A DNA stretch of 64,000 bases from a virus (taxonomy: Duplodnaviria > Caudoviricetes). The position numbers were made by a program, and so were the translations under genes. Positions 4,426 to 40,220 of the stretch are shown piece after piece. The notes under the pieces were generated by a model, which saw only the letters and a program-made list of their open reading frames with translations, was not told the DNA's origin and ran no database searches. The stretch spans positions 32,001-96,000 of IMG/VR virus record IMGVR_UViG_3300026549_000051. One strand, written 5' to 3'. Positions within the stretch are counted from its first letter, which is position 1. Each line of letters opens with the position of its first letter.

Positions 4426-4427
4426 GA

Positions 4428-4889: not shown

Positions 4890-4926
4890 GCTTTCTCTCC
4901 TCGTTTAGATTACTAATCTAAGTTTA

Positions 4927-5610: not shown

Positions 5611-5632
5611 ATCTTTATTTTATAATAACTAT
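5611..5632. promoter_or_regulatory. Bidirectional leaderless promoter (back-to-back -10 boxes)
   Basis: 22 bp between divergent ATGs; TATAAT-N6-ATG on + and TAAAAT-N6-ATG on -; same geometry at 63819-63840. Confidence 0.7.
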
Positions 5633-6178: not shown

Positions 6179-6218
6179 TTTTTCTTAGTGTAGACTGCAC
6201 CTCATTTATAATATGGGT

Positions 6219-7364
6219 ATGAGTTGTAATTGTAATAAATGCGGTAACGACCCTTGCAGCTGCGGCGGCTGCCAGCCAGCTCGTTACTCTTGCGATTTCT
6301 CCATTGAGGTTGACCCATTCAACCCATATATTTGGCTACTAAATAACTGTGGCAAACTGAGCCGCATTAATATTCCTAAGATTCCAGAGACCTGTACTAG
6401 TCTGCAGTCCAATTTCTCGGCTGCGAGCCTTGTTTATAATGGCGAGTGTGGTCAAGACGTTATTACTGGGCGCCAGCTTGGTCAGCTTATTAATCTCGAC
6501 GACCTACGCGATGTCGATGTTGCCGATGCAGACTCCTGCGATTTAATGGTTTTCGACCCAGGCTGTACTGCTTGTGGCGATGGCTGTAAACCAAAGCCAG
6601 CCATGTGGCGCAAATATCATATCCCTGATGCTGGCGATTGCGAGGTTGAGCCTGATTCTGATGGGTATTACCATGTGCTTATTAAGGACGACTGTGGCTG
6701 TATCAAAGAGTGCCGTATCCCAGTAGTGCCTGATGGTAGCGCGATTATTAACTATGTGCGCGACTCGGTGCCTGATGACCCAGATTTCCCGTGGTATTAT
6801 GGCAACTACAATGACACCATCAATCTCTACTTGTCTCAGAACTTCGCTCAGTGGTTCGGCAAGTACGACCTTGAAGTGACGATTAACTACGGTGTACAGT
6901 GCGTCCGCCCAGTCGCTGGTAAGAACGTGAACTTCCGTTCTCTTATCGTCCCAGTGGTAGAAGGCACTGAGCCTAATGTGGAAATGATGTCGTCTATCCT
7001 ACAAGACGACTGTACTACCCGTAACCTAGCGAACCAGCGTGTTATTCCGTGGGGCACTAAGTCCCTGCGTGGCACTTTCGCCTTTATAGTTCCTAAGGGG
7101 AAAGAGGCCTATCTCCACCATGAGTTCCGTCTTCGCACAGTTGATTCCAGTGCTAACTACTGGATCGACCCTACCTATGACGGCAAAATCGTTCCAGCAG
7201 AGATTGCTGGCCAGATTAACACCATGCCGCATAATGCTTCTCGTCTTCACGCTTTACAGGTAATCGTTAAGCCTGCTCGTGGTGTCGTAAGCTACGACCC
7301 AGTTAAAGACGCTGACCGTACTCAGCTCGACGCTCCAGTTGATTTATACCCTAATATCGGATAG
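6219..7364 (+). CDS. Cys-rich putative virion protein
   Basis: MSCNCNKCGNDPCSCGGC start; LDDLRDVD motif shared with 47485 and 48180; start placed by TATAAT-N6-ATG. Confidence 0.7.
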   Translation: MSCNCNKCGNDPCSCGGCQPARYSCDFSIEVDPFNPYIWLLNNCGKLSRINIPKIPETCTSLQSNFSAASLVYNGECGQDVITGRQLGQLINLDDLRDVDVADADSCDLMVFDPGCTACGDGCKPKPAMWRKYHIPDAGDCEVEPDSDGYYHVLIKDDCGCIKECRIPVVPDGSAIINYVRDSVPDDPDFPWYYGNYNDTINLYLSQNFAQWFGKYDLEVTINYGVQCVRPVAGKNVNFRSLIVPVVEGTEPNVEMMSSILQDDCTTRNLANQRVIPWGTKSLRGTFAFIVPKGKEAYLHHEFRLRTVDSSANYWIDPTYDGKIVPAEIAGQINTMPHNASRLHALQVIVKPARGVVSYDPVKDADRTQLDAPVDLYPNIG

Positions 7365-11709: not shown

Positions 11710-12558
11710 TTACGCTTGTGTATCTTCGTCAAGCAGTTTGTCGATTTCGTCGAACACTCCTCCGCTAAATGGATTTTGGAGGTTACGGATATTATCCTTC
11801 TCGTTTGCCTTCTCCATTGCTTCCTGCCATTCCCCCTGACTCTTATATGGGGAATTGTAGGTATTTTCCCCCACAATAACCTTCCATCCCTTCCAGCGCT
11901 TGTGTCTAGGGACATCTTCCTCGTAGAATTTAATGTCATACTTCTTGATTAGCGACAGCATCTCGTCTCGGAGTTCTGGGACATCCACATACTCTAGGTA
12001 TGTGCCATAGACCCTGAGCGGCTCGTCCTTATGCTCGAGGTTATACTTATGCACAAGACTGAAGCAGTTTTCCACAACCCTTAACACATATGATTTTGGG
12101 TATAGTGGGTTCTTGTTCTTAAACATCGTGATAAGTCTGCCACTATGGATGCCGTCATGGCAGGTGCGACAGATAGCTACCACACGCTCGAACTTACCAG
12201 TCTGCTTATCGTAGTCATAACTGAACAGCTCATGAGCATGAAGGTCGCCCTTCTTTGGTTCACGACCACAAATCTCGCACTTATACCCAGCGTTGTAATA
12301 TGCGCTCTTTCGCATGAAGTCCCAAGTAGTCTTGCCGAAGATGGTGCGAGGCTGCATACCCTGACCATGAAGAGGACGAGGGACATTCGGCATTGTGATT
12401 AACGGGATACCAGTCCCCTCAGGACATCGCCATTGCTTGACCTTTTCCACATCGAATGGCTCCATCGGTTTAAGAAGATCTCTAGCCTCGGCTTCCCCCA
12501 TAGCCATCATAGAGTCGTCCACCATCTGCTCGGTCAATAACTTTTTAACCGCCCCCAT
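11710..12558 (-). CDS. HNH-like zinc-binding protein
   Basis: YKCEICG..LHAHE..ICRTCHDGIH. Confidence 0.6.
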   Translation of the reverse strand: MGAVKKLLTEQMVDDSMMAMGEAEARDLLKPMEPFDVEKVKQWRCPEGTGIPLITMPNVPRPLHGQGMQPRTIFGKTTWDFMRKSAYYNAGYKCEICGREPKKGDLHAHELFSYDYDKQTGKFERVVAICRTCHDGIHSGRLITMFKNKNPLYPKSYVLRVVENCFSLVHKYNLEHKDEPLRVYGTYLEYVDVPELRDEMLSLIKKYDIKFYEEDVPRHKRWKGWKVIVGENTYNSPYKSQGEWQEAMEKANEKDNIRNLQNPFSGGVFDEIDKLLDEDTQA

Positions 12559-18067: not shown

Positions 18068-18386
18068 AGTATTCGCTCTTGATACGAGTTTTCTTCTCTA
18101 AGATAGCACGGACTTCGTCTGATGTATTCGCCTGCATTACCTCAAAGATGAGTTCCTGCATGGCTTGCTCACGGCGTGCCTCGCGTCGGCGTCGGTTGCC
18201 TGATGCATTAGAAGCAATACGCTTCTTACGAAACTCGTCATCAGTATGGTAGCGATTAGTAATGTTCTTTGTGGTCGTTTTTGTGTGTGCCTTACGGCGA
18301 CATTCTTCCGAGCAAACTTGTGGCACTCTGCCACGCTTCTTCTCCACTTCAAACTCTTTGCCACAGATTTTGCATTTAACTAACAT
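18060..18386 (-). CDS. Zn-finger basic protein
   Basis: CKICGKEF..CSEEC. Confidence 0.65.
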   Translation of the reverse strand: MLVKCKICGKEFEVEKKRGRVPQVCSEECRRKAHTKTTTKNITNRYHTDDEFRKKRIASNASGNRRRREARREQAMQELIFEVMQANTSDEVRAILEKKTRIKSEYYA

Positions 18387-18841
18387 CGTCCGTTCCTTTC
18401 TGCTAGTTCATCTAGCGTATATTTTTGGTCTGATACCATATCTTGGATACACTCTTCCTCAAAGTCGGCGAGTGCATCTGCCAACCAGTCCCTCGCGTAA
18501 TATAGTATATCGCTATACTCTTCATCGGTTAGGTCAAGGTGTTGGTCTTCAATATAGTCTATGAGGTTGCCCTCACAGGCTTGCTCGCAGAGGTCTTCAA
18601 AGTTTTCAAAGTAATATTCAGTATGTCCCTCATCGTCCTCGCCAGCCCCATACTCAGCGTTGGCACGCAACCAACTGCGTAGGTTTTCCATATGTAAAGT
18701 CTTCGCATAAACCTGCTCGCCGATACGCTTGATGTCTGCTTCTTGAACAGCATTATAAAATGCTTTGTCGTACTTATGTGGCTCAGGCATGAGGTCATCA
18801 ATGCCCTCTTTAATCGCCAACAAATCTTTAATCTTGCTCAT
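18380..18841 (-). CDS. Acidic hypothetical protein
   Basis: Start moved to MSKIKD (GGAGG RBS). Confidence 0.65.
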   Translation of the reverse strand: MSKIKDLLAIKEGIDDLMPEPHKYDKAFYNAVQEADIKRIGEQVYAKTLHMENLRSWLRANAEYGAGEDDEGHTEYYFENFEDLCEQACEGNLIDYIEDQHLDLTDEEYSDILYYARDWLADALADFEEECIQDMVSDQKYTLDELAERNGRC

Positions 18842-19256
18842 CTTCGTTGTCCTCCACCTTATCAATAAACTGCTGTGCTTTGTTATAAAAATCGTCAAAC
18901 ATATCTTGGCACAACTCCAAATGTTCCTGTAAATGTTTTGGCTCGGCTGGGGCAGGGGCAGAAGATGATGATAGTGAAGCCCTAGTCATATCGAAGAGGG
19001 CTTTGTGAATATCGCCCTGTCGCTTGCCGAACTTTGCCATGTGGTTTTCAAGGCTATCGAAACTCCAATGCTCTTCGCCATCTCCCCAACCATTCTCATC
19101 TAGGGGTTCATTGCCTACCTCAATGTCGCAATGCCACTCGCCTTGCCCATCTCGGTTCTGGTCGCTCGCATAGATATAATAATGGTCATAGCGTTTAATG
19201 TCGTTTAATAGTCGGTGCAAGTCTGACACCTTCATTACAATATTCTTATCTTCCAT
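18828..19256 (-). CDS. Hypothetical protein
   Basis: AGGAG RBS, operon coupling. Confidence 0.65.
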   Translation of the reverse strand: MEDKNIVMKVSDLHRLLNDIKRYDHYYIYASDQNRDGQGEWHCDIEVGNEPLDENGWGDGEEHWSFDSLENHMAKFGKRQGDIHKALFDMTRASLSSSSAPAPAEPKHLQEHLELCQDMFDDFYNKAQQFIDKVEDNEDEQD

Positions 19257-19266
19257 GGTCTTCTCC

Positions 19267-19752
19267 TTATAGGTCAGCAGTCATCATGCAATAACCTTTT
19301 TGTTTAAGTTCGTTATAGATATTCAAGCCTAACTGAACACGGCTCGCAGCCAACTCCTTCTCGCTACTAATAGGGTACATAACTGGCTTGTCATCCCCCA
19401 TGTGATAACCACATGCCTTATGCCCCATAGCGTCCTTAGTCTGTTCTTCGGTCAAGTAATACTTGGCTAAGTCTTCCCACACATAATTCCCCACATCGTC
19501 TAGTTCATACTTGCGTTCATCTTTTGGCACGCCCAGTATATCGTACTGTTTGTCTAATCGCTTCTTGATACGCTCGGCATCATAGCACTCGTAATCTACA
19601 TAGCATTCGCCGTAGCCATCATCCTCTCCCTGGTCGGCATCATCTGCTGGGACTTCGTTCATCCCATAAATATCTTTGGGGTCGGTGCTTGGTTGCACGG
19701 CAAACCAAAACTTACCTTCCCTGCCTGAATTAAAATAGTAATATCTTCCCAT
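19267..19752 (-). CDS. Hypothetical protein (MGRYY..GKFWFAVQPS)
   Basis: RBS and its own promoter. Confidence 0.7.
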   Translation of the reverse strand: MGRYYYFNSGREGKFWFAVQPSTDPKDIYGMNEVPADDADQGEDDGYGECYVDYECYDAERIKKRLDKQYDILGVPKDERKYELDDVGNYVWEDLAKYYLTEEQTKDAMGHKACGYHMGDDKPVMYPISSEKELAASRVQLGLNIYNELKQKGYCMMTADL

Positions 19753-19794
19753 AGTTTTTTCTCCAATTAGTTTTAATAGTTCCCCTCTGATTTA

Positions 19795-19823
19795 ATACTA
19801 GCACACTTGCTAACTATTGTCAA
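19795..19823 (-). promoter_or_regulatory. Sigma70-type early promoter
   Basis: TTGACA-17-TAGTAT with extended TG. Confidence 0.75.
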
Positions 19824-19825
19824 TA

Positions 19826-20065
19826 CTATTCTTCCATCTCCTTATATAATTCATTACGCAACTCGCTCAATGCATATGGCATGTGTCCATAGTTCATGTG
19901 CATTAGCCAAATCAACATGGCTGTTCGCATATGCTCTTCTCGTCCATCAATGATGGCTTCAATAACAGCACGCTCGCTGTGCCAGTTCTCATCGGTCAAT
20001 TTATCTAAGAATTGTTGCACGGTCATCTTATCTATTTCTGTGGCTGAGTTATTCCAGTATGCCAT
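19826..20065 (-). CDS. Early hypothetical protein
   Basis: RBS, TAATG coupling. Confidence 0.65.
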   Translation of the reverse strand: MAYWNNSATEIDKMTVQQFLDKLTDENWHSERAVIEAIIDGREEHMRTAMLIWLMHMNYGHMPYALSELRNELYKEMEE

Positions 20066-20391
20066 TACTTATTCTCCTTTCTTAATTGCTTAACGCACTC
20101 ATAACATAAGGCACAATAATCTTCATCTTCTGCCATGATGTTATCAATTAAATCTTGGTCGTATTCAGGGTCAAGATATTCAACCCAACACAACTCTTCG
20201 CTAGGGTACAACGCCCCACACTTGTCGCAGATATTGAACTCTATCGGCATTAACACATCATCTATTGCTTCTATCGGTTCATCTCCCTCGTACTCTGCAC
20301 AACTAATCTCCAAATTGAGGTCATCAAAATAGCCTATGCTGTTGTGCCTTACTCGGCTCTGCAACTCTTCTATCTTCTCTTGTCGTGTCAT
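20065..20391 (-). CDS. Early Zn-binding hypothetical protein
   Basis: CDKC..CYEC. Confidence 0.65.
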   Translation of the reverse strand: MTRQEKIEELQSRVRHNSIGYFDDLNLEISCAEYEGDEPIEAIDDVLMPIEFNICDKCGALYPSEELCWVEYLDPEYDQDLIDNIMAEDEDYCALCYECVKQLRKENK

Positions 20392-20597
20392 AGTTCAATA
20401 TAATCTCCATCTTCCGTTATTACATTATGCCCTTGAAACTCCAAACGATACCACTCTTCGCCCTCTTGCCCACACTCTTTACACTTGTATGGGAAGTAGC
20501 ACATATCGTCTGTGTATTTAATCGGTTGGTAGTCCAAACTAATCTCCCCACATCTCGGACACTCGCCTTGTCTGTTCATATAGTCTTCTTTATTCAT
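20388..20597 (-). CDS. Early Zn-ribbon protein
   Basis: CPRC..CKEC. Confidence 0.65.
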   Translation of the reverse strand: MNKEDYMNRQGECPRCGEISLDYQPIKYTDDMCYFPYKCKECGQEGEEWYRLEFQGHNVITEDGDYIEL

Positions 20598-20760
20598 CTT
20601 CTTCCTCTGCTTTCTTATTAGCGTTTAATACTATTTCCACATCTTTAATCATGTCGTTGATATCGCCATAGCGACAACTGCCACCATCATTAAAATCTTT
20701 GATGTCATCAGCAAACCATAGCGACTGCAACTCCCAGTCAATTACTAGATATCTGCTCAT
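20590..20760 (-). CDS. 56-aa early protein (not in ORF track)
   Basis: MSRYLVIDWELQSLWFADD..; fills the gap, overlapping both neighbours. Confidence 0.6.
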   Translation of the reverse strand: MSRYLVIDWELQSLWFADDIKDFNDGGSCRYGDINDMIKDVEIVLNANKKAEEEDE

Positions 20761-20966
20761 CTTCCACTCCCATCTGTGGCTAGGTTAGCACCTGCCATCA
20801 AGTCCATCATGATATTCACATAGCGTTCTTTCTCTGCCCCCTCACTACACATAGCACAGCCATAAAAATACTTAACGGCTTCGGCTCGGTCTTCCCACTT
20901 ATCAATATGCCCATAGCATATGGTCGTGATATCTTCTTTTCCCTTGATTTCTTTTTTGCTTGACAT
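20757..20966 (-). CDS. Early hypothetical protein
   Basis: AGGAG RBS; CSEGAEKERY. Confidence 0.65.
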   Translation of the reverse strand: MSSKKEIKGKEDITTICYGHIDKWEDRAEAVKYFYGCAMCSEGAEKERYVNIMMDLMAGANLATDGSGR

Positions 20967-20983
20967 TTTCTTCTCCTTTCTTA

Positions 20984-21259
20984 TTAATAGTCCAGCATTA
21001 CCCAGTCTAGGTCATCGTCTGTGTAGCCCCAAAAGTCCAACAACCTTTGTGCTACCTCTTCAAGTTCTAGGTCTTTGATATACTCAGATGTCATCATCTG
21101 CCCACCATCTTCTAGCACTACATCTTCCCCATCAACACCATATACTGATGTCATCATGTAGTCTTTCAAGCCTTCGGCTTCATCTTCTTTGGTCAAGTTA
21201 TCGCCAGTCCCCTCAACTGCCGTAATTAACTTGTTGATATCTCTAATAAAAAGTATCAT
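20984..21259 (-). CDS. Early acidic hypothetical protein
   Basis: RBS, coupling. Confidence 0.65.
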   Translation of the reverse strand: MILFIRDINKLITAVEGTGDNLTKEDEAEGLKDYMMTSVYGVDGEDVVLEDGGQMMTSEYIKDLELEEVAQRLLDFWGYTDDDLDWVMLDY

Positions 21260-21723
21260 TACTTTTCTCCTAACCAGTCTGCTACTGTTTTATTACCGTT
21301 GCTAATACCATCAGCATATTCTTGGGCTTTGTTCGTTCCCATCATGCCATCAAGTTCTTGTAGTTTCTTATAGGTGTTCAACTGCTCTTCGGTCATGGCT
21401 GGCTTCTCTTTCTCCTTTTCTCGTTGAATAAAGTACAAGATGTCTTCGGCGTGCATTTCACAATACGCTTCTGATAACATATACTCCTGTGCCACAGCAT
21501 ACGCTTGCTTGTCGGTCAGTTTAATATCGTGGTTCTCTGCCACATACTCTACATCTTCCTTAACCCACTCCAAGTCTTCACGCTCTTTAATCTTGATATA
21601 CTCTTCACGCAAATCATGGGCTAGGGCTTCAATGCTCCATGATGGGTCATCTGCTTCGCTTTCGCCAAAGTTCTTCTTAACCCACTCATACAAAAATGTC
21701 TTAAATGCTTCTTCTACATTCAT
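21259..21723 (-). CDS. Early hypothetical protein
   Basis: Start moved to MNVEEAF, just after the upstream stop. Confidence 0.65.
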   Translation of the reverse strand: MNVEEAFKTFLYEWVKKNFGESEADDPSWSIEALAHDLREEYIKIKEREDLEWVKEDVEYVAENHDIKLTDKQAYAVAQEYMLSEAYCEMHAEDILYFIQREKEKEKPAMTEEQLNTYKKLQELDGMMGTNKAQEYADGISNGNKTVADWLGEK

Positions 21724-21724
21724 C

Positions 21725-21985
21725 TTAAAAGTCCTTTCCGATATATACTCGTTTAAGTAATTTACTCTTGCCGTTGCCAAACAAATTGGCTTGGCATTTT
21801 GGGCATAGCCCAGTCTTGATGAACTCACGCTCCACAGCGTTCAGTTCTCCAAACAACTCTTGAATATACCCATGCCCATGCTCATACTCATAGAGTTTTT
21901 TCATCTGTTCTTCATCTAGTGGCAAGCCATAGTCATCACTACAACTCGGACATCGTATAATCAATTCGTCTTCGCCTACCATCAT
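21725..21985 (-). CDS. Early Zn-binding protein
   Basis: CPSC..EREFIKTGLCPKC. Confidence 0.7.
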   Translation of the reverse strand: MMVGEDELIIRCPSCSDDYGLPLDEEQMKKLYEYEHGHGYIQELFGELNAVEREFIKTGLCPKCQANLFGNGKSKLLKRVYIGKDF

Positions 21986-22200
21986 GCTTCTTCTCCAATT
22001 AACTCAAAATCTTCATTATATAGTTCCACCCCTAATGCGTGTGCCAGCTCATTTAGCACCCACTCTTTGCCACTATTAAAATAATATTCATCTCTATACT
22101 TACGCTTATCTCCTTTCTGCTTTTTAATCGTATCGTTCAAGGCTTCTAACTCTGCCTTGTATTTTCGGCGTATAATCTTAGCCAATTCACTCTGCTTCAT
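21982..22200 (-). CDS. Early hypothetical protein
   Basis: Start MKQSEL with GGGAG RBS. Confidence 0.6.
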   Translation of the reverse strand: MKQSELAKIIRRKYKAELEALNDTIKKQKGDKRKYRDEYYFNSGKEWVLNELAHALGVELYNEDFELIGEEA

Positions 22201-22405
22201 AAAACTCCCTTTCGCTTTTATCATTAGCCTTAATGCTTAGCACATACTCAACACCGTCAATAACTATCGCTATCTTCGGCTCACCATTATCTTGCCAGTC
22301 ATTAGCCACACACATATCTTTTGCCATGCTTGGCTCAAACTGTTCTTGCTCATCATTATCTGCTAACTTGTCGTATATCATGTCCATTAATTTATACTTG
22401 TCCAT
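22187..22405 (-). CDS. Early hypothetical protein
   Basis: Operon position. Confidence 0.6.
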   Translation of the reverse strand: MDKYKLMDMIYDKLADNDEQEQFEPSMAKDMCVANDWQDNGEPKIAIVIDGVEYVLSIKANDKSEREFYEAE

Positions 22406-22408
22406 ATC

Positions 22409-22948
22409 TTATAGCCTTTCTTCTCTTAAAATGCTTCGCAACTCATAGTGTGCCACGCCGTCCATAAGCCCATATGCTTCTTCACGCAATGCCACGATTT
22501 TGTTCGCTATCTCATCAAAATTACTCAGCACATCTTCTAACTCATTAGCAATATGCTTATAGTATTCAATACGCTTGCTAATCTCTGCTTCTATCTCATC
22601 TGGTGTCAATTCAATGCAAGGGTGTAAATACTGCCCACGATTTATTAGCCGTCCTTGCTTCTCATACTCTTTCGCTTCTTCCTTGTCAAACACAGTCTTA
22701 GTGATGTTAATGGTGTCATCAAAATAATGCCCATTGTCATCACGCTTGCACACACTAATCTCTTTTTCGCTTGCGTTGTATCTGTTATTGCGAATTGCCC
22801 CCTTAGTAAAGTTCTGTGCAAGGTTCTTGAAGTCCTTGCCGTCCTTAGTCTTATAGCGTTCAATATCTGCCCATGCTTCAATAAGCACATCACATTCATG
22901 CTTGCGTTGTTCTAGTTTTTTCTTCGCTTGTTCTGCGTAATAGTCCAT
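22409..22948 (-). CDS. Early hypothetical protein
   Basis: AAGGA RBS, own promoter. Confidence 0.7.
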   Translation of the reverse strand: MDYYAEQAKKKLEQRKHECDVLIEAWADIERYKTKDGKDFKNLAQNFTKGAIRNNRYNASEKEISVCKRDDNGHYFDDTINITKTVFDKEEAKEYEKQGRLINRGQYLHPCIELTPDEIEAEISKRIEYYKHIANELEDVLSNFDEIANKIVALREEAYGLMDGVAHYELRSILREERL

Positions 22949-22979
22949 AATATTCCTTTCACTTTTACTTTATAATCTT

Positions 22980-23008
22980 AGTATAGCAAACTATTCTTTA
23001 ATTGTCAA
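22980..23008 (-). promoter_or_regulatory. Sigma70-type early promoter
   Basis: TTGACA-17-TATACT with extended TG. Confidence 0.8.
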
Positions 23009-23267
23009 TACTATTTACTCCATAAGTTATAATAAACTTTACATTTTTAATTGTGTCGGTGTCATAGCCACCACCTGCCACTAGTGCTAAATCATGCTTA
23101 ATATAACTATCAATAGCATCCTTGCACCAAAAACTATCTGTATCTATGTGGTATATATCGCAAAACTCAAACTCGTTATTGCGTTCTGCTTCGTCAATAT
23201 ATTTTAAGTCAGGGTGGTTCTTCTTTACCTTATACTTAATTACACCCTTAACATTTATAATTGCCAT
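22998..23267 (-). CDS. Early hypothetical protein
   Basis: YIKHDLALVAGGGY; 89-aa ORF. Confidence 0.65.
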   Translation of the reverse strand: MAIINVKGVIKYKVKKNHPDLKYIDEAERNNEFEFCDIYHIDTDSFWCKDAIDSYIKHDLALVAGGGYDTDTIKNVKFIITYGVNSIDN

Positions 23268-23744
23268 AGTGTTTATACCCTTTTGCGATTATTAATAACA
23301 TTAAAGCCGTTTATAGTTATCGCATTACCATAAACGGCTTATTGTATTATCAATTTTCACATGAAATTATTTGGCTTATGCTATACGGCGTTTCTATGTC
23401 TATACTTTACCCATAAGCCCATTTTTCTCGTAAAATTATGGTATTAGTCGGTCATCTATTATATGCCTTAGTCTATACCCACTTAAAACGCTAGTGTTAT
23501 GGCTTGCTATTGCCCACTAGTCAAATTGTCAAAATACAGGACGCATAATTCTAGTTATGCTAGCCAGCCCCTTACCCTATACACGATTACATCATTCTTT
23601 TTGATGTTGATAATAGCATCAAAAACATTGTCTGCTTACGCTATCTGTCGGGGTGCTTTGAATAATAAAATCTCAGTTGCATAATTTATAGTTGTCATGC
23701 TTAACTATGTGCGATAAATTAATTAATTAACTTATCATAATTAC

Positions 23745-23773
23745 ATTATAAGCCATATGTGCTAAAAAGTCAA
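23745..23773 (-). promoter_or_regulatory. Sigma70-type early promoter
   Basis: TTGACT-17-TATAAT; a second TG-TATAAT at 23914-23922. Confidence 0.75.
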
Positions 23774-24092
23774 GCATATTTTTAAAAAATGTTATAGTTT
23801 TTTGTTTAAGCCTTGATTAAATTACTTATGCTAATCTAAAAAACTTAATACGCTAATTTAGTTTAACGGCTTTAATGTGCTTAGATAGTTATTTATTAAC
23901 TTATCTTGATTAAATTATAGCACACTTATTCAATGTTGCATAGACTTGATTTTTAAGATTTTTGATGTTCTAATATAGACTATATGCCAAAATTAGATTA
24001 AAACAGTAATAACACATAATATGCAATTTTGAGCCTACTTTTAAAAAAAACGGCTTTACTTACTTAATAATTTATTAATTTTGTCAAGTTTA

Positions 24093-24201
24093 GCATAATC
24101 ATCAATAGCAAAAGCAAAAGCATTAGCAATATAAACGCATGGACGCATACACACATACATGGGGAAGCCGACGCCACCTCCTCCTTTTAATCACTATCAT
24201 C
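24093..24201. repeat. Dispersed ~110-bp non-coding repeat, copy 1
   Basis: Shares GCATAA..CATCA, ACGCA..ACGCA, ATACATrGrGrmAGCCG, ACCTC and ATCACTATCATC with 25064-25174. Confidence 0.7.
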
Positions 24202-24359
24202 GCATTTATCCTACGGATAATTGCTTCTTAGCCTCCAGCTCTTGCTCCTCAGCCATCATAGAAGACACGAAGACGTGTTCTCTAGTTGCCTTGTGGGGTG
24301 CAGGGGGTTTTGACCATTAAAATCGCTCTGAGGGGCTCTGGTGAGCTCAGAGAGGCAAC

Positions 24360-24386
24360 AAAAAAGCCCCCTGGTTGGGGGCTGTT
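24360..24386 (-). terminator. Intrinsic terminator
   Basis: AGCCCCC-loop-GGGGGCT followed by a T-run on -. Confidence 0.75.
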
Positions 24387-24391
24387 CTTGC

Positions 24392-24649
24392 TTAGATGCC
24401 GAAGCGGATGCGGGCGTACTCTCGATCGAGAGGTGCTGGTTTCATATGGTTTGGCTCGACTGCTCTCCAGGTGTAGTAAGCTTCGACTTCCCATTCGTCA
24501 TCTCTGAGACCAGACTTGTTATAAGCGACATAAGAGACGGGTTCGTCTTTATACATATAACCAGTGTCGCCATATTCGCATTCAGTCAATCCGTGCTTCT
24601 CGGCGTACTCTTTAGCTTTGTAGTAGTCAGTAAAATAAATGGTTTCCAT
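24392..24649 (-). CDS. Early hypothetical protein
   Basis: AGGAG RBS, terminator downstream. Confidence 0.7.
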   Translation of the reverse strand: METIYFTDYYKAKEYAEKHGLTECEYGDTGYMYKDEPVSYVAYNKSGLRDDEWEVEAYYTWRAVEPNHMKPAPLDREYARIRFGI

Positions 24650-24696
24650 TGTAGTTTTTTCTCCTGTTGCCCCTCCGAAGAGGGGCGTTATTGTTA

Positions 24697-24939
24697 TTAT
24701 TTTGTGCTGTTTATAGCTTCAATTATCTGTTTTCTATCTTTATGCACGGCGTTCCAGAATTTTTCTGGAGAGTAGTTTTTGTTTTGTTTTCTTAGTTCGT
24801 TGTCTATTGCGTCGTGCAGTTCTTCGAGGAGGAGTCCGTCTTCAGCGTTGCCGTCACCAATGATGAAGCACCCGTCCTTAAGATGAAAACTTAAAATTGA
24901 TATGAGTTTTGCTATAACTTGGAAGTCTTTTCGAGTCAT
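24697..24939 (-). CDS. Early hypothetical protein (MTRKDFQVIA)
   Basis: AGGAG RBS, promoter upstream. Confidence 0.7.
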   Translation of the reverse strand: MTRKDFQVIAKLISILSFHLKDGCFIIGDGNAEDGLLLEELHDAIDNELRKQNKNYSPEKFWNAVHKDRKQIIEAINSTK

Positions 24940-25001
24940 AACTTTTTCTCCTGTTTAGTTGTTAACTTTCGAGATGTTTTTTCTTCACATCTCTTATTAT
25001 A

Positions 25002-25030
25002 AGGATATCAAATTATTTTAAAATTGTCAA
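25002..25030 (-). promoter_or_regulatory. Sigma70-type early promoter
   Basis: TTGACA-17-TATCCT with extended TG and A-tracts upstream. Confidence 0.65.
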
Positions 25031-25063
25031 TAACTTTTTTACACTTTTTTGCACTTTTTTTAT

Positions 25064-25174
25064 GCATAACATTCATCATCATGGCGTGCGTGTAACAAGC
25101 AACGCACCAACGCACCAACTCATATATACATAGAGGCAGCCGCGGACCTCTTTTCCTCTAATATCACTATCATC
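25064..25174. repeat. Dispersed ~110-bp non-coding repeat, copy 2
   Basis: See 24093-24201. Confidence 0.7.
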
Positions 25175-25207
25175 AGATTCCTCTCCCCGAAGGGAGAGGA
25201 TCGAGAG

Positions 25208-25381
25208 CTATTGCACTTCTGCTTCCTCCTTCACATCTTCGATGATGTGCCAATCTTCGTCGCAATGGTTGTGCTCGAAGATATCGAACTCGGTTAGAGT
25301 CATGCCCCAGCATTCTGTATCACAGTCTGGGAGGACATTTTTCTTCATGCGGTTGATTTCGCTTCTAGTAATAAATAACAT
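25208..25381 (-). CDS. 57-aa early protein (not in ORF track)
   Basis: AGGAG RBS; MLFITRSEINRMKKNVLPDCDTECWG.. Confidence 0.65.
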   Translation of the reverse strand: MLFITRSEINRMKKNVLPDCDTECWGMTLTEFDIFEHNHCDEDWHIIEDVKEEAEVQ

Positions 25382-25422
25382 AGTTTTTTCTCCTTACTGG
25401 GGCGGTTGCCCGCCCCTGTTAA

Positions 25423-25569
25423 TTAATATTCCCACCAGTGTTTATGTATGCCTCGTTTTTCGTCCTCGGCTTTTCGGGCTTTTATCTCCTTGGCGCAGGT
25501 GTAAATCGTCCAAAGGCAGAAGCCGAAGCAGATGCCGTTAATGAGGTCGATACTGTTAAGGTTTTGCAT
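25423..25569 (-). CDS. 48-aa early membrane peptide (not in ORF track)
   Basis: AGGAG RBS; MQNLNSIDLINGICFGFCLWTIYTCAKEIKARK.. Confidence 0.6.
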   Translation of the reverse strand: MQNLNSIDLINGICFGFCLWTIYTCAKEIKARKAEDEKRGIHKHWWEY

Positions 25570-25631
25570 TTTTCTCCTTATGCCACCCCCGTGGGGCGCT
25601 TGGGGGGTGGCTAGTTATTAAAATTTAGCAG

Positions 25632-25904
25632 TTACGCTTTGATGCCTTCGTGCATCTCCTTAGCCTTGCGTATGGCTTCTTCTTTATCGTCGGCTCGCCA
25701 GATGTGGTAAAACTCCATACCTTGGTCGAGATAGTAACGGTCAAGGCTTCCATATGTGAGGTCATAATCTCGCATATCTGTTTTACGCCAGCCTTGTATG
25801 AGTTGCGTAATTAGCGCATGGGGTAGCTCGCAAGGGCTTGCGATATACTCCCAGTTATCTGTTACAGCCTGTTTGATGGCTACTACGATGTAAGATGTGT
25901 TCAT
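25632..25904 (-). CDS. First leftward early protein
   Basis: AAGGAG RBS, promoter upstream. Confidence 0.7.
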   Translation of the reverse strand: MNTSYIVVAIKQAVTDNWEYIASPCELPHALITQLIQGWRKTDMRDYDLTYGSLDRYYLDQGMEFYHIWRADDKEEAIRKAKEMHEGIKA

Positions 25905-25949
25905 TTTAAACTCCTTGATATTAATTTACTTGGTCGCCCCACTAATTAC

Positions 25950-25978
25950 ATGGTAGCACACTTTTAAAATATTTGCAA
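25950..25978 (-). promoter_or_regulatory. Sigma70-type early promoter
   Basis: TTGCAA-17-TACCAT with extended TG. Confidence 0.55.
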
Positions 25979-26252
25979 GCCTAAAATAACAGGGGTGGAT
26001 GCTATGATTTTTAAAAATCTTTTACGATTTTACGAGCTAAAATGCTAAAAAATTTAGCGATATTTTACGCCCATAATTTAGACGGGGCAGAGACCCCCAG
26101 GAGTATAGATATAACCCCTCGCCCCAGCGAGGGGTGGTTTGGGGTGTCATACCCCTTTCCGCCTTCTTTTCGCCTTCTTTATACCTCTTTTTATTATTAA
26201 TGCCCCCCTCTATAACCTTGACAACCCCTGCCATAAATATGTTGTAATATGG

Positions 26253-26505
26253 AAAAATATATGTCTAAATTTAGCTTAAGCTCAATAAAAATGGCCGATT
26301 TTGGCAAAAATATATGTCAAAATGTGCGAAATATATGTCAAAAATGGAGCATAAGCATGATGTTTTGGCATATATATTACAAAAGCTTATTGACAAGTCT
26401 GAAATTCGGTGTTCTGGCTAAATCCAATTTAGACATATATTTTTAAATTTAGACATATATATTCCGCAAAAAAGCATATATTTTACTATATATTTGCATA
26501 TATTT
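26253..26505. repeat. Iteron-like AATATATGTC array (putative replication origin)
   Basis: Three direct copies (near 26256, 26309, 26330), then inverted copies; perfect 19-bp IR 26253-26271/26426-26444; AT-rich; just upstream of the SF3 helicase. Confidence 0.7.
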
Positions 26506-26555
26506 GTCAACCCCCTCTCGGCCGTCTAATTCCGTGCCATATTCACATTTATGTG

Positions 26556-26586
26556 TTGACACCACAACCATCGGCCATGGTATAGT
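26556..26586 (+). promoter_or_regulatory. Rightward promoter for the replication operon
   Basis: TTGACA and TG-TATAGT (19-bp spacer). Confidence 0.5.
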
Positions 26587-26629
26587 GGAAGTATCAACAA
26601 CAAATAACATGCAGCGAAAGGAGAGAGGC

Positions 26630-26893
26630 ATGAAAAGTGAACTTAGCCAACGTATCAGCACATTAGAGGAGCTGAACGCGACACCAGAGCTGAGCGCTCA
26701 GATGGCGAACTATGAGATCAACATTCTAGCCATCACGGACAGTTATATATTATATGAGTTCTCATATATTAACGATGAGACCAAAATGAAAAAATGGGCG
26801 AAGCGGCTGGCGCCGCTGCAGGGGGGCATCACGAGTACATACGAGTATCTTATAAAGACTGTTAAACGTGAGCGCGAGGCGATGGGGCAGTAA
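26630..26893 (+). CDS. Hypothetical protein upstream of helicase
   Basis: Start MKSELSQ after AAGGAGAGAGG. Confidence 0.65.
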   Translation: MKSELSQRISTLEELNATPELSAQMANYEINILAITDSYILYEFSYINDETKMKKWAKRLAPLQGGITSTYEYLIKTVKREREAMGQ

Positions 26894-26894
26894 T

Positions 26895-28649
26895 ATGGAT
26901 GGTGCGGAGGTAGCGGCGGTCCCGATGGCCACCGTGAATGACTTACTGAATGCGGCGCCGGACTTGAAGATGAGCGCGGCGGACTGGACTCGGAAGCGGA
27001 CACTGGAGGCGGTGCGCAAACAATACGAGTTTATATATGTGGACGCGGCGAGGGCGGTGTATTATCGGCCGATGCCAGACGAGATGAACCCGGAGGAGGC
27101 GTTTAAGAGGCTGACGGACATAAGGGCGAGTCAGCTCATCGTGAGTATTTGCCGGAAGCTGTATCCACACAAGGTGATGGCGCCGAGGACCGTGACGGAG
27201 CTGAGTGATACAATTAGCCTATACACAGACCGGCACTTGGACCGGCTGAACGACAATATAATAAAGGTAGGAGCGGACATGTATTGGGACGAGGAGAAGG
27301 CCGCCTTGACCGAATTTCCGGATGGGGTGTGCATGCGTGAGCTGTTTGACGCCAGTTCTCTGGACGAGATTAAGCTGAACATACACGACATATCAACAGC
27401 GTATATGAGAGGGGTGTATAAGAAGACCCTTGCGCACTTAGAGAAGAATAACGGGAATATTACGCCGTGGGAGCTGTTGGGCCCCAAACAGCAGACAGAG
27501 ATGGGGTGCAGTATGTTGTCGCTGGACTCGGCTGCACTAGCGCCGTTTTGGGTGTGGGCGAATGAAGACCTGGACACCTTTAATGATCTGTTGAAGGCGA
27601 CTGCGTCTATTTTTATGCTCCACAAGCCGAAGGGGGCGTTTATCTTAATTGGGCGTACGCGCAATGGCAAATCGAGTTTCATTAAGATGCTCCATACCCT
27701 CCTAGGGCGGAATAATACCTCAGCGGTGAAACTGGCTGACCTCGAGGACCCCCATTTTGTATATGACCTTACTACTACTATGCTGAATGCGCCGGATGAA
27801 GATGACGAGGGAAAAGGGGCGGAGTTGAAACGCAGCCAGAGCTATTTCAAGTCTATATCTGCGCATGAGCCGATTCCACTGAAGCTGCTCTTCTCTTCTG
27901 AGCCAGTGAAAGTCTCGACTCAGTTCATGAGCTTTTATCCGATGAATAAGTTGCCGGAGTGGACTGGCAGTGGGAAAGAGGCATGTATGCGTCGCTCGTT
28001 AATTCTGATGTTCAACAATGACCTCAGTAAATTCGACAACAACGGTCGGAATTTCGAGAAGGAGACTTATACCGAGGCCTTCTATAGTGAGCTGTTGGGG
28101 GTTGTGCTAGCGATTGCGCATTACTATCGTGACAGACCGCTGGAGTTCTCGACTACGATGCAGGCGAATCGCGAGAGCGTATCTGAGGCGATTGACTCGG
28201 CCACGACCTACCTCAATTTGTTTGTTAAATACTTTAGCGGCTATCAGGTCACGCCACTAGTGGATGACTATGAGCTGTGGTGCGTGGAGAACGGATATCA
28301 GTATAACCGCAAGGAGTTGAAGCAGAAGCTCTTGACCGCCAATTCGCAGAAGAGCACGGCGTATTCTGACGGTGCTGTGCTTACCGTATACAAGTTCCCT
28401 GGCACGAAGGACAGCAAGTTGCCGAACTTTATGCCACAGTATATGGTGCCGGAGTTCAAGCGCTATGTGTCAGACATTATTAATACGGCGACTGTGGGGG
28501 TCGGGCCGAATAAGCAGCCGGCTCGCAGTGTGGTGGCTATGCTCGAGGAGTATTATGCGACCCACGATAACCCAAACGAGTTGCCTGAGCAGATGCAGTT
28601 CGAGGGGCCAGTGGTGGACGGCGACATCGAGGACTTAATCAATGAGTAG
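26895..28649 (+). CDS. D5-like SF3 helicase (no primase domain recognised)
   Basis: FILIGRTRNGKSSF Walker A, NAPDED Walker B, FYPMNKLP motif C, MRRSLI arginine finger. Confidence 0.85.
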   Translation: MDGAEVAAVPMATVNDLLNAAPDLKMSAADWTRKRTLEAVRKQYEFIYVDAARAVYYRPMPDEMNPEEAFKRLTDIRASQLIVSICRKLYPHKVMAPRTVTELSDTISLYTDRHLDRLNDNIIKVGADMYWDEEKAALTEFPDGVCMRELFDASSLDEIKLNIHDISTAYMRGVYKKTLAHLEKNNGNITPWELLGPKQQTEMGCSMLSLDSAALAPFWVWANEDLDTFNDLLKATASIFMLHKPKGAFILIGRTRNGKSSFIKMLHTLLGRNNTSAVKLADLEDPHFVYDLTTTMLNAPDEDDEGKGAELKRSQSYFKSISAHEPIPLKLLFSSEPVKVSTQFMSFYPMNKLPEWTGSGKEACMRRSLILMFNNDLSKFDNNGRNFEKETYTEAFYSELLGVVLAIAHYYRDRPLEFSTTMQANRESVSEAIDSATTYLNLFVKYFSGYQVTPLVDDYELWCVENGYQYNRKELKQKLLTANSQKSTAYSDGAVLTVYKFPGTKDSKLPNFMPQYMVPEFKRYVSDIINTATVGVGPNKQPARSVVAMLEEYYATHDNPNELPEQMQFEGPVVDGDIEDLINE

Positions 28650-29082
28650 TCTAGCTGATGCGATTATCCAGCAAAATGAGCGCAAGGGCGCTTCCCCTGA
28701 GGGGAATACTCCCGAGGGGTATTATCGTGACGACATGGGGTATTTAGTAGAAGAAGACCTCGTGGAGGATAAGGAGAGGTATGCGGAGTATGTGCTGCTT
28801 CGCATACTGAGGCTGCACCATAATATATATATGCGCTATGGGCGGCTGTACTGTGGGCACCACCTACTGGAGTGCAATATGCAGGAGGCGCTGGAGCTGG
28901 CGGACTCACCGAGGGTGAGGCTGAACCCTGGGCAGGTGGCGTGGATTTTTAACCGCCTGAGGGAGCTGGCGCCAGAGATAGACGAGACCAAGATCCTGAT
29001 TGCTGATGGGGTATACTGGGACATGGATAAGGCCGAGCTGGTCGATTTAGATGAATCAATTAAGTTAACAACCATGAGGTAG
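28642..29082 (+). CDS. Protein resembling the helicase N-terminal domain
   Basis: KILIADGVYWDMDKAELV vs helicase IIKVGADMYWDEEKAALT. Confidence 0.65.
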   Translation: MSSLADAIIQQNERKGASPEGNTPEGYYRDDMGYLVEEDLVEDKERYAEYVLLRILRLHHNIYMRYGRLYCGHHLLECNMQEALELADSPRVRLNPGQVAWIFNRLRELAPEIDETKILIADGVYWDMDKAELVDLDESIKLTTMR

Positions 29083-29085
29083 GAA

Positions 29086-29379
29086 ATGTTGGAGAGAGAT
29101 TTTAAGAAGAATTTTCAGAAGAGACTAAAGAAAGAAGTGAAGCCGTTGGCGATTTTACAATATAAACAGGACGCCACGACAGTTGCTGGCTTTCCTGATA
29201 CCCTGGTGATACTTGAAGGTATAACGATTTTTATAGAGTACAAAAAGAGCAAGACGGCTAAATTCCGTCCCGGGCAGAAGGAGTGGAATGCGAAACTCAA
29301 TGAGAATGGTCACTTTGCCTTTATCTGTTACCCGGAGAACGCAGATAAGATTATCGAGGAGATAAAGAGGATAGCATGA
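29086..29379 (+). CDS. VRR-NUC nuclease (Holliday junction resolvase-like)
   Basis: MLERDF..AGFPD..FIEYK..RPGQKEW PD-(D/E)xK pattern. Confidence 0.85.
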   Translation: MLERDFKKNFQKRLKKEVKPLAILQYKQDATTVAGFPDTLVILEGITIFIEYKKSKTAKFRPGQKEWNAKLNENGHFAFICYPENADKIIEEIKRIA

Positions 29380-29648
29380 AATATATTATCAGATGCACAT
29401 GTGGGGGCGTGAAGACTAAGATGGAGGCAGCGATGCAGCTGATTGCCCCGGGGGAGCCACTCCCCCCGGAGGTGAAAGGCGGCGACGCCATGAGAAAACT
29501 GGCGGAGAAGTGGCCAAACACTAACTTCGGTAATCATCTATTGGTGCTTGCGAAGAAACATGGGCGCTACTGCTATTATGTTGAGATAACTGATAAGGGC
29601 GACATTAAGGATATGCGCGACCTGATGACTGGCAGGAGGATGTACTAA
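29376..29648 (+). CDS. Hypothetical protein (CxCG)
   Basis: ATGA overlap. Confidence 0.6.
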   Translation: MKYIIRCTCGGVKTKMEAAMQLIAPGEPLPPEVKGGDAMRKLAEKWPNTNFGNHLLVLAKKHGRYCYYVEITDKGDIKDMRDLMTGRRMY

Positions 29649-38655: not shown

Positions 38656-38656
38656 A

Positions 38657-39121: not shown

Positions 39122-39123
39122 TA

Positions 39124-39366: not shown

Positions 39367-39373
39367 AAACGTA

Positions 39374-40218: not shown

Positions 40219-40220
40219 AA

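Follow-up and report, generated by a model that had tools for sequence, protein, structure and literature searches.

Results

Organization of the leftward arm

The locus belongs to an uncultured cattle-gut phage of ~55 kb. The window, by which we mean the whole 64-kb stretch of DNA that was analysed, is part of a record of 111 kb in total, and positions 22341–27500 are bridged by a contig of 10,053 nt assembled from the source sample. The unit of interest is read leftward. Coding on the minus strand is indicated by orthologues on this strand in the relative G001 and in unit 2, and by GGAG ribosome sites upstream. Gene size, position and promoters suggest that this is an early region. The phage packages a polyvalent protein of 2168 amino acids with an LPD38 domain. 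The features referred to below are:

18380–23745, minus strand: TC-depleted leftward transcription unit with about 15 small ORFs and a leader; the cumulative GA deficit on the plus strand extends from ~18.4 to ~23.8 kb
21950–23267, minus strand: promoter-proximal core with ORFs 22998–23267, 22409–22948, 22187–22405 and 21982–22224
21950–22496, minus strand: first TC-free run of the coding strand, 547 nt
22830–23287, minus strand: second TC-free run of the coding strand, 458 nt
22980–23008, minus strand: second promoter-like site, inside the arm (TTGACA, 17 nt, TATACT, upstream TG)
23268–23738, minus strand: putative untranslated leader between promoter and first ORF
23745–23773, minus strand: predicted sigma-70-like promoter (TTGACT, 17 nt, TATAAT), marking the ban's upstream limit
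23775–24160, no strand: AT-rich region (about 76% A+T) separating the leftward arm from the rightward genes of the next genome unit
26868–29648, plus strand: rightward arm with a primase-like gene and small ORFs, whose coding strand is more mildly depleted of TC

Both promoter-like sites are predicted by consensus match alone. The one at 23745–23773 agrees with the consensus at 11 of 12 positions, and identical hexamers are present at L004:484–512, where the ban starts in G001. The leader matched no family in Rfam.

Strand-specific loss of TC

Between 19267 and 23300, GA occurs 49 times on the plus strand versus 134.7 ± 9.3 expected from 5000 composition-preserving shuffles (z about −9), and the longest GA-free stretch in any of these shuffles was 371 nt. 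The two GA-free runs, which the preliminary description had put at 545 and 456 nt, measured 547 and 458 nt; no other dinucleotide is missing from a stretch longer than 270 nt anywhere in the window. The reported rarity of AGA, GGA and GAG on the plus strand was borne out in the same interval (8, 4 and 3 occurrences, versus 433 for TC). On the coding strand the ratio of observed to expected TC is 0.36 in the arm versus 0.97 in late genes. TC is the sole depleted dinucleotide on this strand of the window's arm, the arm-to-late-gene ratios of the other 15 all lying within 0.77–1.25; coding-strand GA is plentiful (observed/expected 1.14).

The ban had been placed at 18900–24200. Depletion there is real, but the bounds shift to ~18.4 and ~23.8 kb, the latter with the promoter-like site at 23773–23745. 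Within 18380–23745 the per-gene ratio is 0.00–0.63, with the exception of ORF 20590–20760 (0.98). The ratio falls off with distance from the promoter, from 0.12 in the core to 0.45 in the middle of the arm, 0.54 in its distal part and 0.92 beyond. In the core, 5 TC were counted versus 40.4 expected, together with 14 CC versus 19.9 and 76 GC versus 40.7; three of the four core ORFs contain no TC at all, where 6.8–13.2 would be expected from their own proteins. The leader is TC-poor as well (8 versus 19.5; ratio 0.41).

Minus-strand genes on either side had been described as spared. This holds for 11.7–18.4 and 24.3–25.9 kb, which are normal, but not for the gene at 18380–18898 (z −3.7). A suspected weak depletion of TC on the plus strand was recovered at 26.9–29.6 kb, in the rightward arm, by amino-acid-preserving resampling (z −4.3 for the primase, −3.0 for gene 28642–29082 and −2.3 for gene 29086–29379), and from 29648 onwards TC values are normal. 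The TC effect recurs in a second copy beyond the window, where the 111-kb record ends.

Among the contexts of TC, TCA is the least depleted; ATCA is tolerated, and CTCC and GTCN are purged. This flank pattern can be explained by codon degeneracy and hence provides no clean enzyme footprint. A DarT-type reader, which had been proposed, was rejected since the avoided word is not TNTC: it makes up 34% of surviving TC sites versus 29% in late genes.

Codon and amino acid usage

The shortage affects all three codon contexts, in agreement with the original observation that it is independent of codon position. TCN codons amount to 8.5 per 1000 in the arm versus 43.8, NTC codons to 20.5 versus 71.7 per 1000, and T|C codon junctions to 8.5 versus 34 expected. 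In terms of amino acid use, Ser4 codons stand at 9.5 versus 42 per 1000 and proline at 19 versus 38. In the window's arm GAC, AAC, CAC, GCC and AGC are used normally, as are ACC and GCC in the window's copy and G001. When codon use was compared over the arms, GTC, ATC, TTC, GCC and ACC were under-used, and GAC, AAC, CAC, GGC and AGC were not. The preliminary description had foreseen that the deficit might vanish once amino acids and base composition were controlled for; it did not. Resampling of late-gene codon usage with amino acids preserved predicted 160.5 ± 9.4 TC versus 50 observed (z −11.7), and permutation of synonymous codons inside each gene predicted 68.5 ± 3.8 (z −4.8).

Conservation in related phages

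Four other related genomes carry this ban in the corresponding arm, and the repetition in relatives that had been suggested located it at the same genomic place in all five arms compared, U1, U2 (unit 2), G001, G002 and G003. It is kept across relatives whose helicases share 50–77% identity. In three of the four other arms CC is depleted too (observed/expected 1.11 in the window's arm, 0.93 in G001), and purine–C steps are retained or enriched. YC density is 26–44 per kb in the five arms versus 90–102 in late genes, a three-fold drop, and RC density is unchanged or raised. Purines make up 57–63% of the message strand in the arms, compared with 53% for late genes. The early genes of T7, SPO1 and the cultured roseophage CRP-7 were also inspected and carry no such ban.

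These data bear on the most trivial explanation, a by-product of base composition, amino acids, codon usage or neutral mutation bias in a fast-evolving region. The arm is indeed C-poor and A-rich, and it encodes small, highly charged, unusual proteins. However, the deficit outlasts all three randomizations, the remaining C-ending codons are used normally, and in G002 and G003, where C is almost as frequent as normal, it has shifted out of YC into RC contexts. Given also the shared genomic place, we consider a by-product barely conceivable.

Discussion

A single-stranded target, probably linked to transcription

As proposed originally, the data favour a single-stranded target over double-strand restriction: the ban is strand-specific, starts at a predicted promoter, affects every codon position as well as the leader, and is conserved. 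Avoidance of restriction sites or palindromes is similar in that a motif is purged, most strictly where the genome acts before counter-measures are in place. The sites in question, however, are double-stranded words of 4–8 bp avoided symmetrically, whereas here a 2-nt word is avoided on one strand. Because the message strand alone is affected and the ban starts at a promoter-like site both here and in G001, the target is more probably linked to transcription than to replication or packaging.

Rho as candidate reader

Of the readers named in the preliminary description, Rho acting on YC fits best, whereas a TC deaminase and a UC RNase gained no specific support. We tentatively favour, at somewhat less than an even chance, a kind of 'anti-rut' coding that would keep Rho, presumably that of the host, off the nascent early RNA; Rho is thus the best but unproven candidate. 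The leftward arm (~18.4–23.75 kb) would be the first operon to be transcribed, with host RNA polymerase starting at sigma-70-type promoters. The message strand of this arm avoids pyrimidine–C steps, TC above all, and keeps purine–C steps; the recoding extends over synonymous codons, the junctions between codons and the leader, and has reached even amino acid usage. The nascent RNA would then offer no rut loading sites to host Rho, whose primary binding clefts each hold one 5'-YC step, and transcription could run through the whole operon before the phage makes a protein that neutralizes Rho or modifies the polymerase. Strictness near the promoter fits polarity, because early termination costs all downstream genes, and relaxation further downstream fits timing, because later parts would be transcribed once the first proteins exist.

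The primary binding site of Rho contacts 5'-YC repeats, and rut sites take the form of C>G bubbles (PMC9160355). By standard rut descriptors, under which a 78-nt window counts if it has C>G and 6 or more YC, we found 0–0.7% such windows on the sense strand of the U1, U2 and G001 arms and 5–9% in G002 and G003, versus 28–38% in late genes; on the antisense strand of the arms the figure is 70–97%. Where ribosomes fall behind RNA polymerase, a purine bias of the coding strand shields genes from Rho, and synonymous changes that add pyrimidines suffice to trigger Rho termination (PMC13323073). The system described there (Dierksheide et al., Nat Microbiol 2026, PMC13323073; PMC9160355) shares with ours the specificity for the sense strand, the effect on codon choice, the depletion of pyrimidines, of C especially relative to G, and an antisense strand that is an ideal Rho substrate. 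It differs in being genome-wide and mild (54% purine), whereas the phage shows a near-absolute ban on one dinucleotide that is limited to a 5-kb putative early operon, is graded from the promoter and, in the window's copy, hits TC much harder than CC. Moreover, synonymous changes alone were shown there to turn on Rho termination; for the phage, dependence on Rho is a candidate reading.

Several observations count against Rho. According to the published E. coli model CC should fit the Rho cleft as readily as UC, but it is scarcely avoided in the window's copy and G001. Residual YC is slightly clustered in four of five arms (variance-to-mean 1.3–1.8), and 80-nt windows with at least 6 YC still amount to 4–16% in four arms (0.4% in unit 2). 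The absence of TC over ~500 nt would seem stricter than necessary if Rho loading takes several YC within 80 nt, and the leader, which should be most exposed, is purged less than the first ORFs (0.41 versus 0.12). T7 and SPO1 infect Rho-bearing hosts, yet their early genes lack the ban, as do those of CRP-7. Searches for the Rho inhibitors Rof and Psu, the latter run without a positive control, found neither.

Possible enzymes acting on RNA or single-stranded DNA

A second candidate is a single-strand RNA enzyme, an endoribonuclease or RNA modifier acting site by site at UC and more weakly at CC, which we regard as possible, though less probable than Rho. It could belong to a host defence or to housekeeping, or be a phage host-shutoff enzyme injected with the DNA, and would be active until an early phage protein neutralizes it; if active only early, early messages must lack its target and later ones need not. 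The near-total loss of TC over ~500 nt, with reshaped use of Ser4 codons and proline, resembles the result of damage per site rather than of a density threshold. The far stronger avoidance of TC than of CC in the window's copy is what enzyme specificity would give, the gradient from the promoter fits progressive neutralization, and absence from T7, SPO1 and CRP-7 marks a lineage-specific trait. The packaged LPD38 protein could carry effector domains. CmdT, which ADP-ribosylates GA in single-stranded mRNA, provides a precedent (10.1101/2024.02.24.581662). On the other hand, no UC-specific bacterial RNase or RNA modifier was found in the literature searched, nor do we know of one; no nuclease-like domain was detected in the early proteins or the polyvalent protein; and a sporadic accessory defence gene is unlikely to hold the ban across such diverged relatives. 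The flank preferences, being explicable by codon degeneracy, lend this enzyme no help.

Exposed TC might instead be attacked on single-stranded DNA, by a cytosine deaminase that prefers TC or an endonuclease specific for dC, either on the non-template strand in the transcription bubble of the heavily transcribed putative early operon or on the lagging-strand template beside an origin in the AT-rich region. Such enzymes exist: 5'-TC is the favoured target of DddA and of APOBEC3-type deaminases, and T4 endonuclease IV cleaves single-stranded DNA on the 5' side of dC, preferring TC. On either side of the AT-rich region the strand that lacks TC is the non-template one, and for forks leaving there it would also serve as lagging-strand template. 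Orthologues of U1 and G001 most often exchange TC and TT, which accounts for 29 of the 58 differences at TC sites. Strand-biased TC depletion is likewise the APOBEC3 footprint in animal DNA viruses. Here, however, there is no consistent excess of TT (observed/expected 1.06, 1.20, 1.07, 1.38 and 0.74 in the five arms), and TCA, which APOBEC3A/B and T4 endonuclease IV favour, is the least rather than the most depleted context. Furthermore, the ban halts at the promoter without crossing the AT-rich region, and the leftward and rightward arms differ greatly in strength, contrary to what an origin-centred effect predicts. The literature searched records no anti-phage TC deaminase, and to our knowledge no bacterial counterpart of APOBEC3 acts on phages. 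We therefore regard attack on DNA as unlikely.

The ban can also be restated as a template strand without GA, as if the phage modified the G or A of 5'-GA-3' all over its DNA, much as some phages use 7-deazaguanines, and kept the template strand of its first genes free of the motif to let host polymerase read the modified DNA after injection. Phage CAjan, reported to carry preQ0-type modification at GA motifs, is a case in point, and DpdA-dependent modification would involve the same motif. But neither TGT/DpdA and QueC nor N6/N4 or D12 methylases were found in the record or in G001–G004, by searches that detected TGT and QueC in 14 of 14 control genomes, N6/N4 methylases in 13 and D12 methylases in 9; a Pfam scan of roughly 45 ORFs revealed no modification enzyme either. 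As GA abounds on the coding strand of this region, one of the two DNA strands would even so carry dense modification, and we give this idea very little credence.

The ban probably means that a single-strand reader of the TC step acts in the newly infected cell. The CmdTAC defence is similar in that a factor recognizes no more than a dinucleotide in single-stranded RNA and thereby blocks the expression of phage genes, but its target is the adenine in GA (10.1101/2024.02.24.581662), and the putative early mRNA of our phage is rich in GA and poor in UC. In the CmdTAC study, phage escape by loss of so short a motif was argued to be hardly possible (10.1101/2024.02.24.581662). The operon described here did achieve the loss of a dinucleotide motif, albeit one other than CmdT's GA.

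TC depletion on the coding strand of the putative early arm

The leftward run of small, putatively early ORFs in the window, here called the arm (coding strand minus), is strongly depleted of the dinucleotide TC on its coding strand (UC in RNA), with an observed/expected ratio of 0.36 compared with 0.97 in late genes. On the plus strand this appears as missing GA, and the two GA-free stretches reported in the preliminary description are borne out at 21950–22496 and 22830–23287; gaps of all other dinucleotides in the window measure at most 270 nt. Between 19267 and 23300, GA was observed 49 times as compared with 134.7 ± 9.3 in shuffled sequence, and GA-free runs reached at most 371 nt in 5000 shuffles. 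The remaining dinucleotides deviate by no more than about 25% in the window arm.

The deficit is visible at every position relative to the reading frame. TCN serine codons amount to 8.5 per 1000 in the arm versus 43.8, with serine shifted to AGY, and NTC codons to 20.5 per 1000 versus 71.7, while T-C at codon junctions was observed at 8.5 versus 34 expected. Usage of GAC, AAC, CAC, GCC and AGC is normal in the window arm. With the proteins fixed and codons resampled from the late-gene usage of the phage, 160.5 ± 9.4 TC were expected and 50 observed; synonymous codon shuffling within genes gave 68.5 ± 3.8. The deficit thus persists under the amino-acid-preserving control that had been called for, and because it outlasts both protein-preserving resampling and synonymous shuffling, it does not vanish with composition, as the preliminary description had allowed that it might, and we consider the effect to be real.

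Assignment of the coding strand to minus is based on same-strand protein orthologues (37–96% identity) of 13 of 15 ORFs tested, found in the related IMG/VR genome G001 and/or in the second genome unit of the record, and on GGAG-type ribosome sites upstream of most of them. Within the arm region the observed/expected ratio of GA on plus is 0.07–0.67 and that of TC on plus 1.02–1.27. This asymmetry rules out avoidance of double-strand restriction and upholds the earlier proposal of a single-strand target.

Putative promoter edge and gradient

According to the cumulative deficit, the depletion extends from about 18.4 to about 23.8 kb. The region had previously been placed at 18900–24200; the depletion itself stands but those edges do not. 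Features at its upstream end and the TC content along the arm are as follows.

Putative promoter and TC observed/expected ratios along the arm
23773–23745, minus strand: sigma-70-like site (TTGACT, 17 nt, TATAAT), best match of the region, at the upstream end of the depletion
Leader, 471 nt (putative, untranslated): 0.41
First 1.3 kb of ORFs: 0.12
Mid-arm: 0.45
18380–19256: 0.54
Helicase region beyond the arm: 0.92

The edge of the depletion coincides with the putative promoter, a consensus match, and its strength declines with distance from it. Identical hexamers are present where the depletion starts in G001 (484–512 of sequence L004). We infer from the sequence that the arm consists of early genes, that transcription would start at this site and that the host polymerase would be used. 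Across the AT-rich region, rightward genes display a weaker TC depletion, again on the strand that encodes them, as far as about 29.65 kb, in agreement with the weak plus-strand depletion noted there before. Since genes on both sides of the AT-rich region are depleted on their own coding strand, the effect tracks the direction of transcription.

Several other elements lie in this part of the window. An 11-bp inverted repeat (AAGCCGTTTAT ... ATAAACGGCTT) at 23304–23342 is located in the putative leader, immediately before the first early ORF, and CTATAC/TATAC words are repeated through 23270–23590. Attenuation, operator function or termination of rightward transcription are possible roles of the inverted repeat; no Rfam family matched within 18–27 kb. 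A GC-rich hairpin at 24365–24383, resembling an intrinsic terminator on both strands, lies after the AT-rich region and before the second unit's first small genes. The source sample also holds a variant (depth about 20) that lacks 135 nt in frame (22202–22336; joint 22201 to 22337) inside ORF 22187–22405 of the TC-free core, i.e. the ORFs nearest the promoter-like site.

Organization of the record

The window covers 32001–96000 of a 111,102-bp IMG/VR virus record made up of two related genomes, each about 55.5 kb long, arranged head to tail with a common gene order. Blastn-aligned segments of units 1 and 2 are about 65–96% identical, mostly 70–85%. Each unit comprises an AT-rich region, rightward replication and structural genes, and a leftward block encoding lysis functions, HNH endonucleases, an AAA_24 ATPase and a helicase; small leftward ORFs complete the unit up to the next AT-rich region, and the finding described here concerns the run of unit 1.

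Genes of the two units
Gene order common to both units: primase-like gene, 570-aa terminase, 383/388-aa protein, 735/737-aa protein, 2233/2168-aa polyvalent protein with LPD38
40221–46727: polyvalent protein, 2168 aa, LPD38 at residues 1644–1832; 2233-aa counterpart in unit 1
3563–4123 and 4111–4425: HNH-type endonuclease genes (Pfam HNH matches)
11710–12558: HNH-type endonuclease gene (PHROGs HNH match)

The presence of HNH genes differs between the two units. A comparison of the 2168-aa protein with solved structures gave no match, and its look-alikes in the Atlas were exclusively other LPD proteins and DNA-transfer (ejection) proteins of the P22 gp16 type; it is probably ejected into the cell along with the phage DNA.

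The units join at 23300–24300. A 10,053-nt contig from the source sample covers 22341–27500 across the joint with zero differences; contigs break at 22088–22341, with mean depths of 32.5 and 42 on either side. The record contains short near-identical segments (54337–54405 and 110781–110849, 96% identity), and the tandem may represent an assembly path via two co-occurring phages that share such segments. Doubt about the tandem leaves the finding untouched because both genomes carry the depletion.

Four related IMG/VR contigs measure 54.8–60.7 kb. The source sample and the other samples holding the phage are cattle-gut metagenomes. Megablast with the arm yielded no match among cultured phages, and terminase relatives are only 22% identical. 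A host search via the endolysin gave no relative among 185,579 genomes, and no tRNA genes were found in the phage.

The depletion in related genomes

The matching arm is depleted in unit 2 (outside the window) and in three relatives (G001, G002, G003), with coding-strand TC ratios of 0.18–0.68 over 2.4–8 kb; outside the arm, TC is near 1 in all of them. The fourth relative, G004, was left out as not comparable: it has only a 25%-identical helicase fragment in common, and it exhibits a mild genome-wide dip of TC and GA, and no arm. A second scan for relatives, by helicase alignment, retrieved short contigs only.

TC is the lowest dinucleotide across the five arms (0.36–0.56) except in G002, where CC is lower (0.45). 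CC ratios are 0.45–0.59 in unit 2, G002 and G003, 1.11 in unit 1 and 0.93 in G001, and GC is enriched 1.4- to 1.7-fold on the message strand of all five arms. Parts of G002 have nearly every C preceded by G, with 27–36 GC per 300 nt versus about 14 expected. C after a pyrimidine (YC) occurs 26–44 times per kb in arms versus 90–102 in late genes, and C after a purine (RC) 99–105 times or, where raised, 154–161 times, late genes having 122–132. In G002 and G003, C was relocated rather than lost, because C content is almost normal.

Codon usage, pooled arms versus late genes
GTC: 0.06 versus 0.27
ATC: 0.21 versus 0.36
TTC: 0.38 versus 0.55
GCC: 0.12 versus 0.22
ACC: 0.11 versus 0.25

Codons ending in purine-C are unchanged in the pooled arms, and proline is halved. 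The tetranucleotide ATCA is not depleted; CTCC and GTCN are down 4- to 14-fold. We do not accept such flank preferences as the footprint of an enzyme, as codon degeneracy can yield much of the pattern.

Candidate agents

The preliminary description had named DarT-type ADP-ribosylation as a possible agent. The data speak against it (TNTC or TTT/TCT word): TNTC is over-represented rather than under-represented among surviving TC sites of the arms (34% versus 29% in late genes), and T at position −2 is up 1.49-fold. The footprint of an APOBEC-like TC deaminase is likewise unsupported, since TT ratios (0.74–1.38) display no trend and TCA (ratio 0.70) and ATCA (1.05) are the least depleted. Avoidance of anti-Shine-Dalgarno sequences fails as the whole cause: CTCC is purged more than any other word (ratio 0.07), but CT is undepleted and GTCN, which is unlike the anti-Shine-Dalgarno sequence, is purged equally. 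UV damage at dipyrimidines was dismissed on the grounds that the purged strand is the non-template strand and the habitat the gut. Nor is the depletion a generic property of early genes, as it is absent from the T7 early region, the SPO1 host-takeover module and the cultured roseophage CRP-7.

The complementary base step was also considered. Modification of GA in mRNA by a CmdT-type enzyme does not agree with a coding-strand GA ratio of 1.14 and the presence of GGAG ribosome sites. Modification of GA in the template strand is very improbable: TGT/DpdA, QueC and adenine methylase are absent from the record and the four relatives, although 9–14 of 14 control genomes, according to family, gave matches. 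Specifically, PF01702 (DpdA) had no match at E ≤ 0.1 in the record and its four relatives and matched 14 of 14 control genomes, and for preQ0 synthesis PF06508 (QueC) reached only 11.9 bits, which is under the cut-off.

The authors of the CmdTAC study regarded phage escape by mutating away a two-letter word as implausible (10.1101/2024.02.24.581662). By contrast, 5 kb of coding sequence has been cleared here of a two-letter step, and protein composition has shifted to allow it. Such removal requires an agent that is strong, reads a single strand and is at work before the phage is able to counter it; that the depletion is a neutral by-product is hardly credible.

Rho as a possible reader

To our knowledge, Rho is the sole general bacterial factor with pyrimidine-C specificity. 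Its primary binding sites contact 5′-YC repeats, and its loading sites are G-poor stretches with C>G (PMC9160355). A purine bias of the coding strand shields genes from Rho where polymerase outruns the ribosome, and synonymous recoding towards pyrimidines suffices for Rho termination (PMC13323073, 2026).

Several properties of the arms agree with avoidance of Rho loading (rut) sites. C>G bubbles are scarce on the sense strand, the proportion of 78-nt windows with C>G being 1.4–2.0% in the arms of unit 1, unit 2 and G001, 14–22% in G002 and G003, and 30–39% in late genes. Rut-like windows, as commonly defined, make up on the sense strand 0–0.7%, 5–9% and 28–38%, respectively, as compared with 70–97% on the antisense strand of the arms. 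Purines account for 57–63% of the message strand in arms versus 53% elsewhere. YC is depleted and RC is not, a pattern with which codon usage agrees. Two other expectations were not borne out throughout. Equal avoidance of UC and CC, as in the E. coli primary-site model, is seen in unit 2, G002 and G003 but not in unit 1 and G001. Residual YC is not kept apart, as it would be if no window were to fill six clefts: variance-to-mean ratios are 1.3–1.8 in four of five arms and 0.65 in unit 2, compared with about 0.95 when placed at random. Between 0.4 and 16.5% of the windows in the arms contain six or more YC.

The pattern says that pyrimidine-C is read on the message strand, or on RNA copied from it, inside a transcription unit, and that pressure is strongest on what would be the first-transcribed part. 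If the reader is the presumed host Rho, a YC-poor message would leave the transcript of the 5-kb operon intrinsically Rho-proof, which would be of advantage for an operon that must be transcribed before any phage protein exists; polarity and timing alike would produce the gradient along the arm. We hold this interpretation tentatively and with less than even confidence because CC is spared in the window copy, residual YC is clustered, the first ORFs are cleaner than the leader, and the TC-free stretches look stricter than a loading threshold demands.

The reader may instead be an enzyme of an undescribed kind that acts on UC or TC one site at a time, in nascent RNA or exposed non-template DNA, during the first minutes of infection. 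It could come from the host, as a widely distributed immunity factor, or from the phage, as an injected enzyme for host shutoff, and a TC-free early protein would switch it off; we regard this as possible but doubtful. Its RNA version, a UC-specific enzyme of host or phage origin neutralized by an early protein, is the main rival to Rho and rather unlikely in itself; a single-strand DNA enzyme with the non-template strand as its target is less likely still and, in our view, improbable.

The early proteins offer few clues. Pfam and PHROGs returned no informative family for 10 early ORFs, and structure models of two core early proteins were too poor for use, with mean pLDDT values of 52.8 and 44.2. 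Among known Rho inhibitors, the Rof family was not found; a Psu family search gave no match in the phage, but it matched 0 control genomes as well and so carries no weight. In the two more distant relatives, the YC-depleted arm of G003 (2839–6616 of sequence L015) and the matching part of G002 (38382–42142) contain three large conserved genes, among them those for a MoxR-type AAA+ ATPase and for a protein weakly matching vWA; the arm of the window is devoid of these three genes.

Significance

Our literature search found no paper describing phage early genes that avoid a dinucleotide on one strand. This clade represents a useful test case, with a small genome, host-type promoters (consensus matches), no DNA-modification genes and a long, graded depletion over 4–8 kb; the case offers a mid-sized phage with a clean promoter boundary and a tested absence of modification genes. 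If Rho is the reader, the "hidden code" of Rho avoidance would reach beyond bacterial genes to the takeover operons of phages, an anti-Rho or antitermination function would be predicted among the early proteins, and a simple sequence signature would become available for immediate-early genes of uncultured phages. If it is not, the depletion would be the footprint of a novel dinucleotide-specific enzyme, and, should the undescribed UC/TC enzyme exist, the TC-free operon would be the trace left in evolution by an antiviral or takeover activity of a new, dinucleotide-specific kind.
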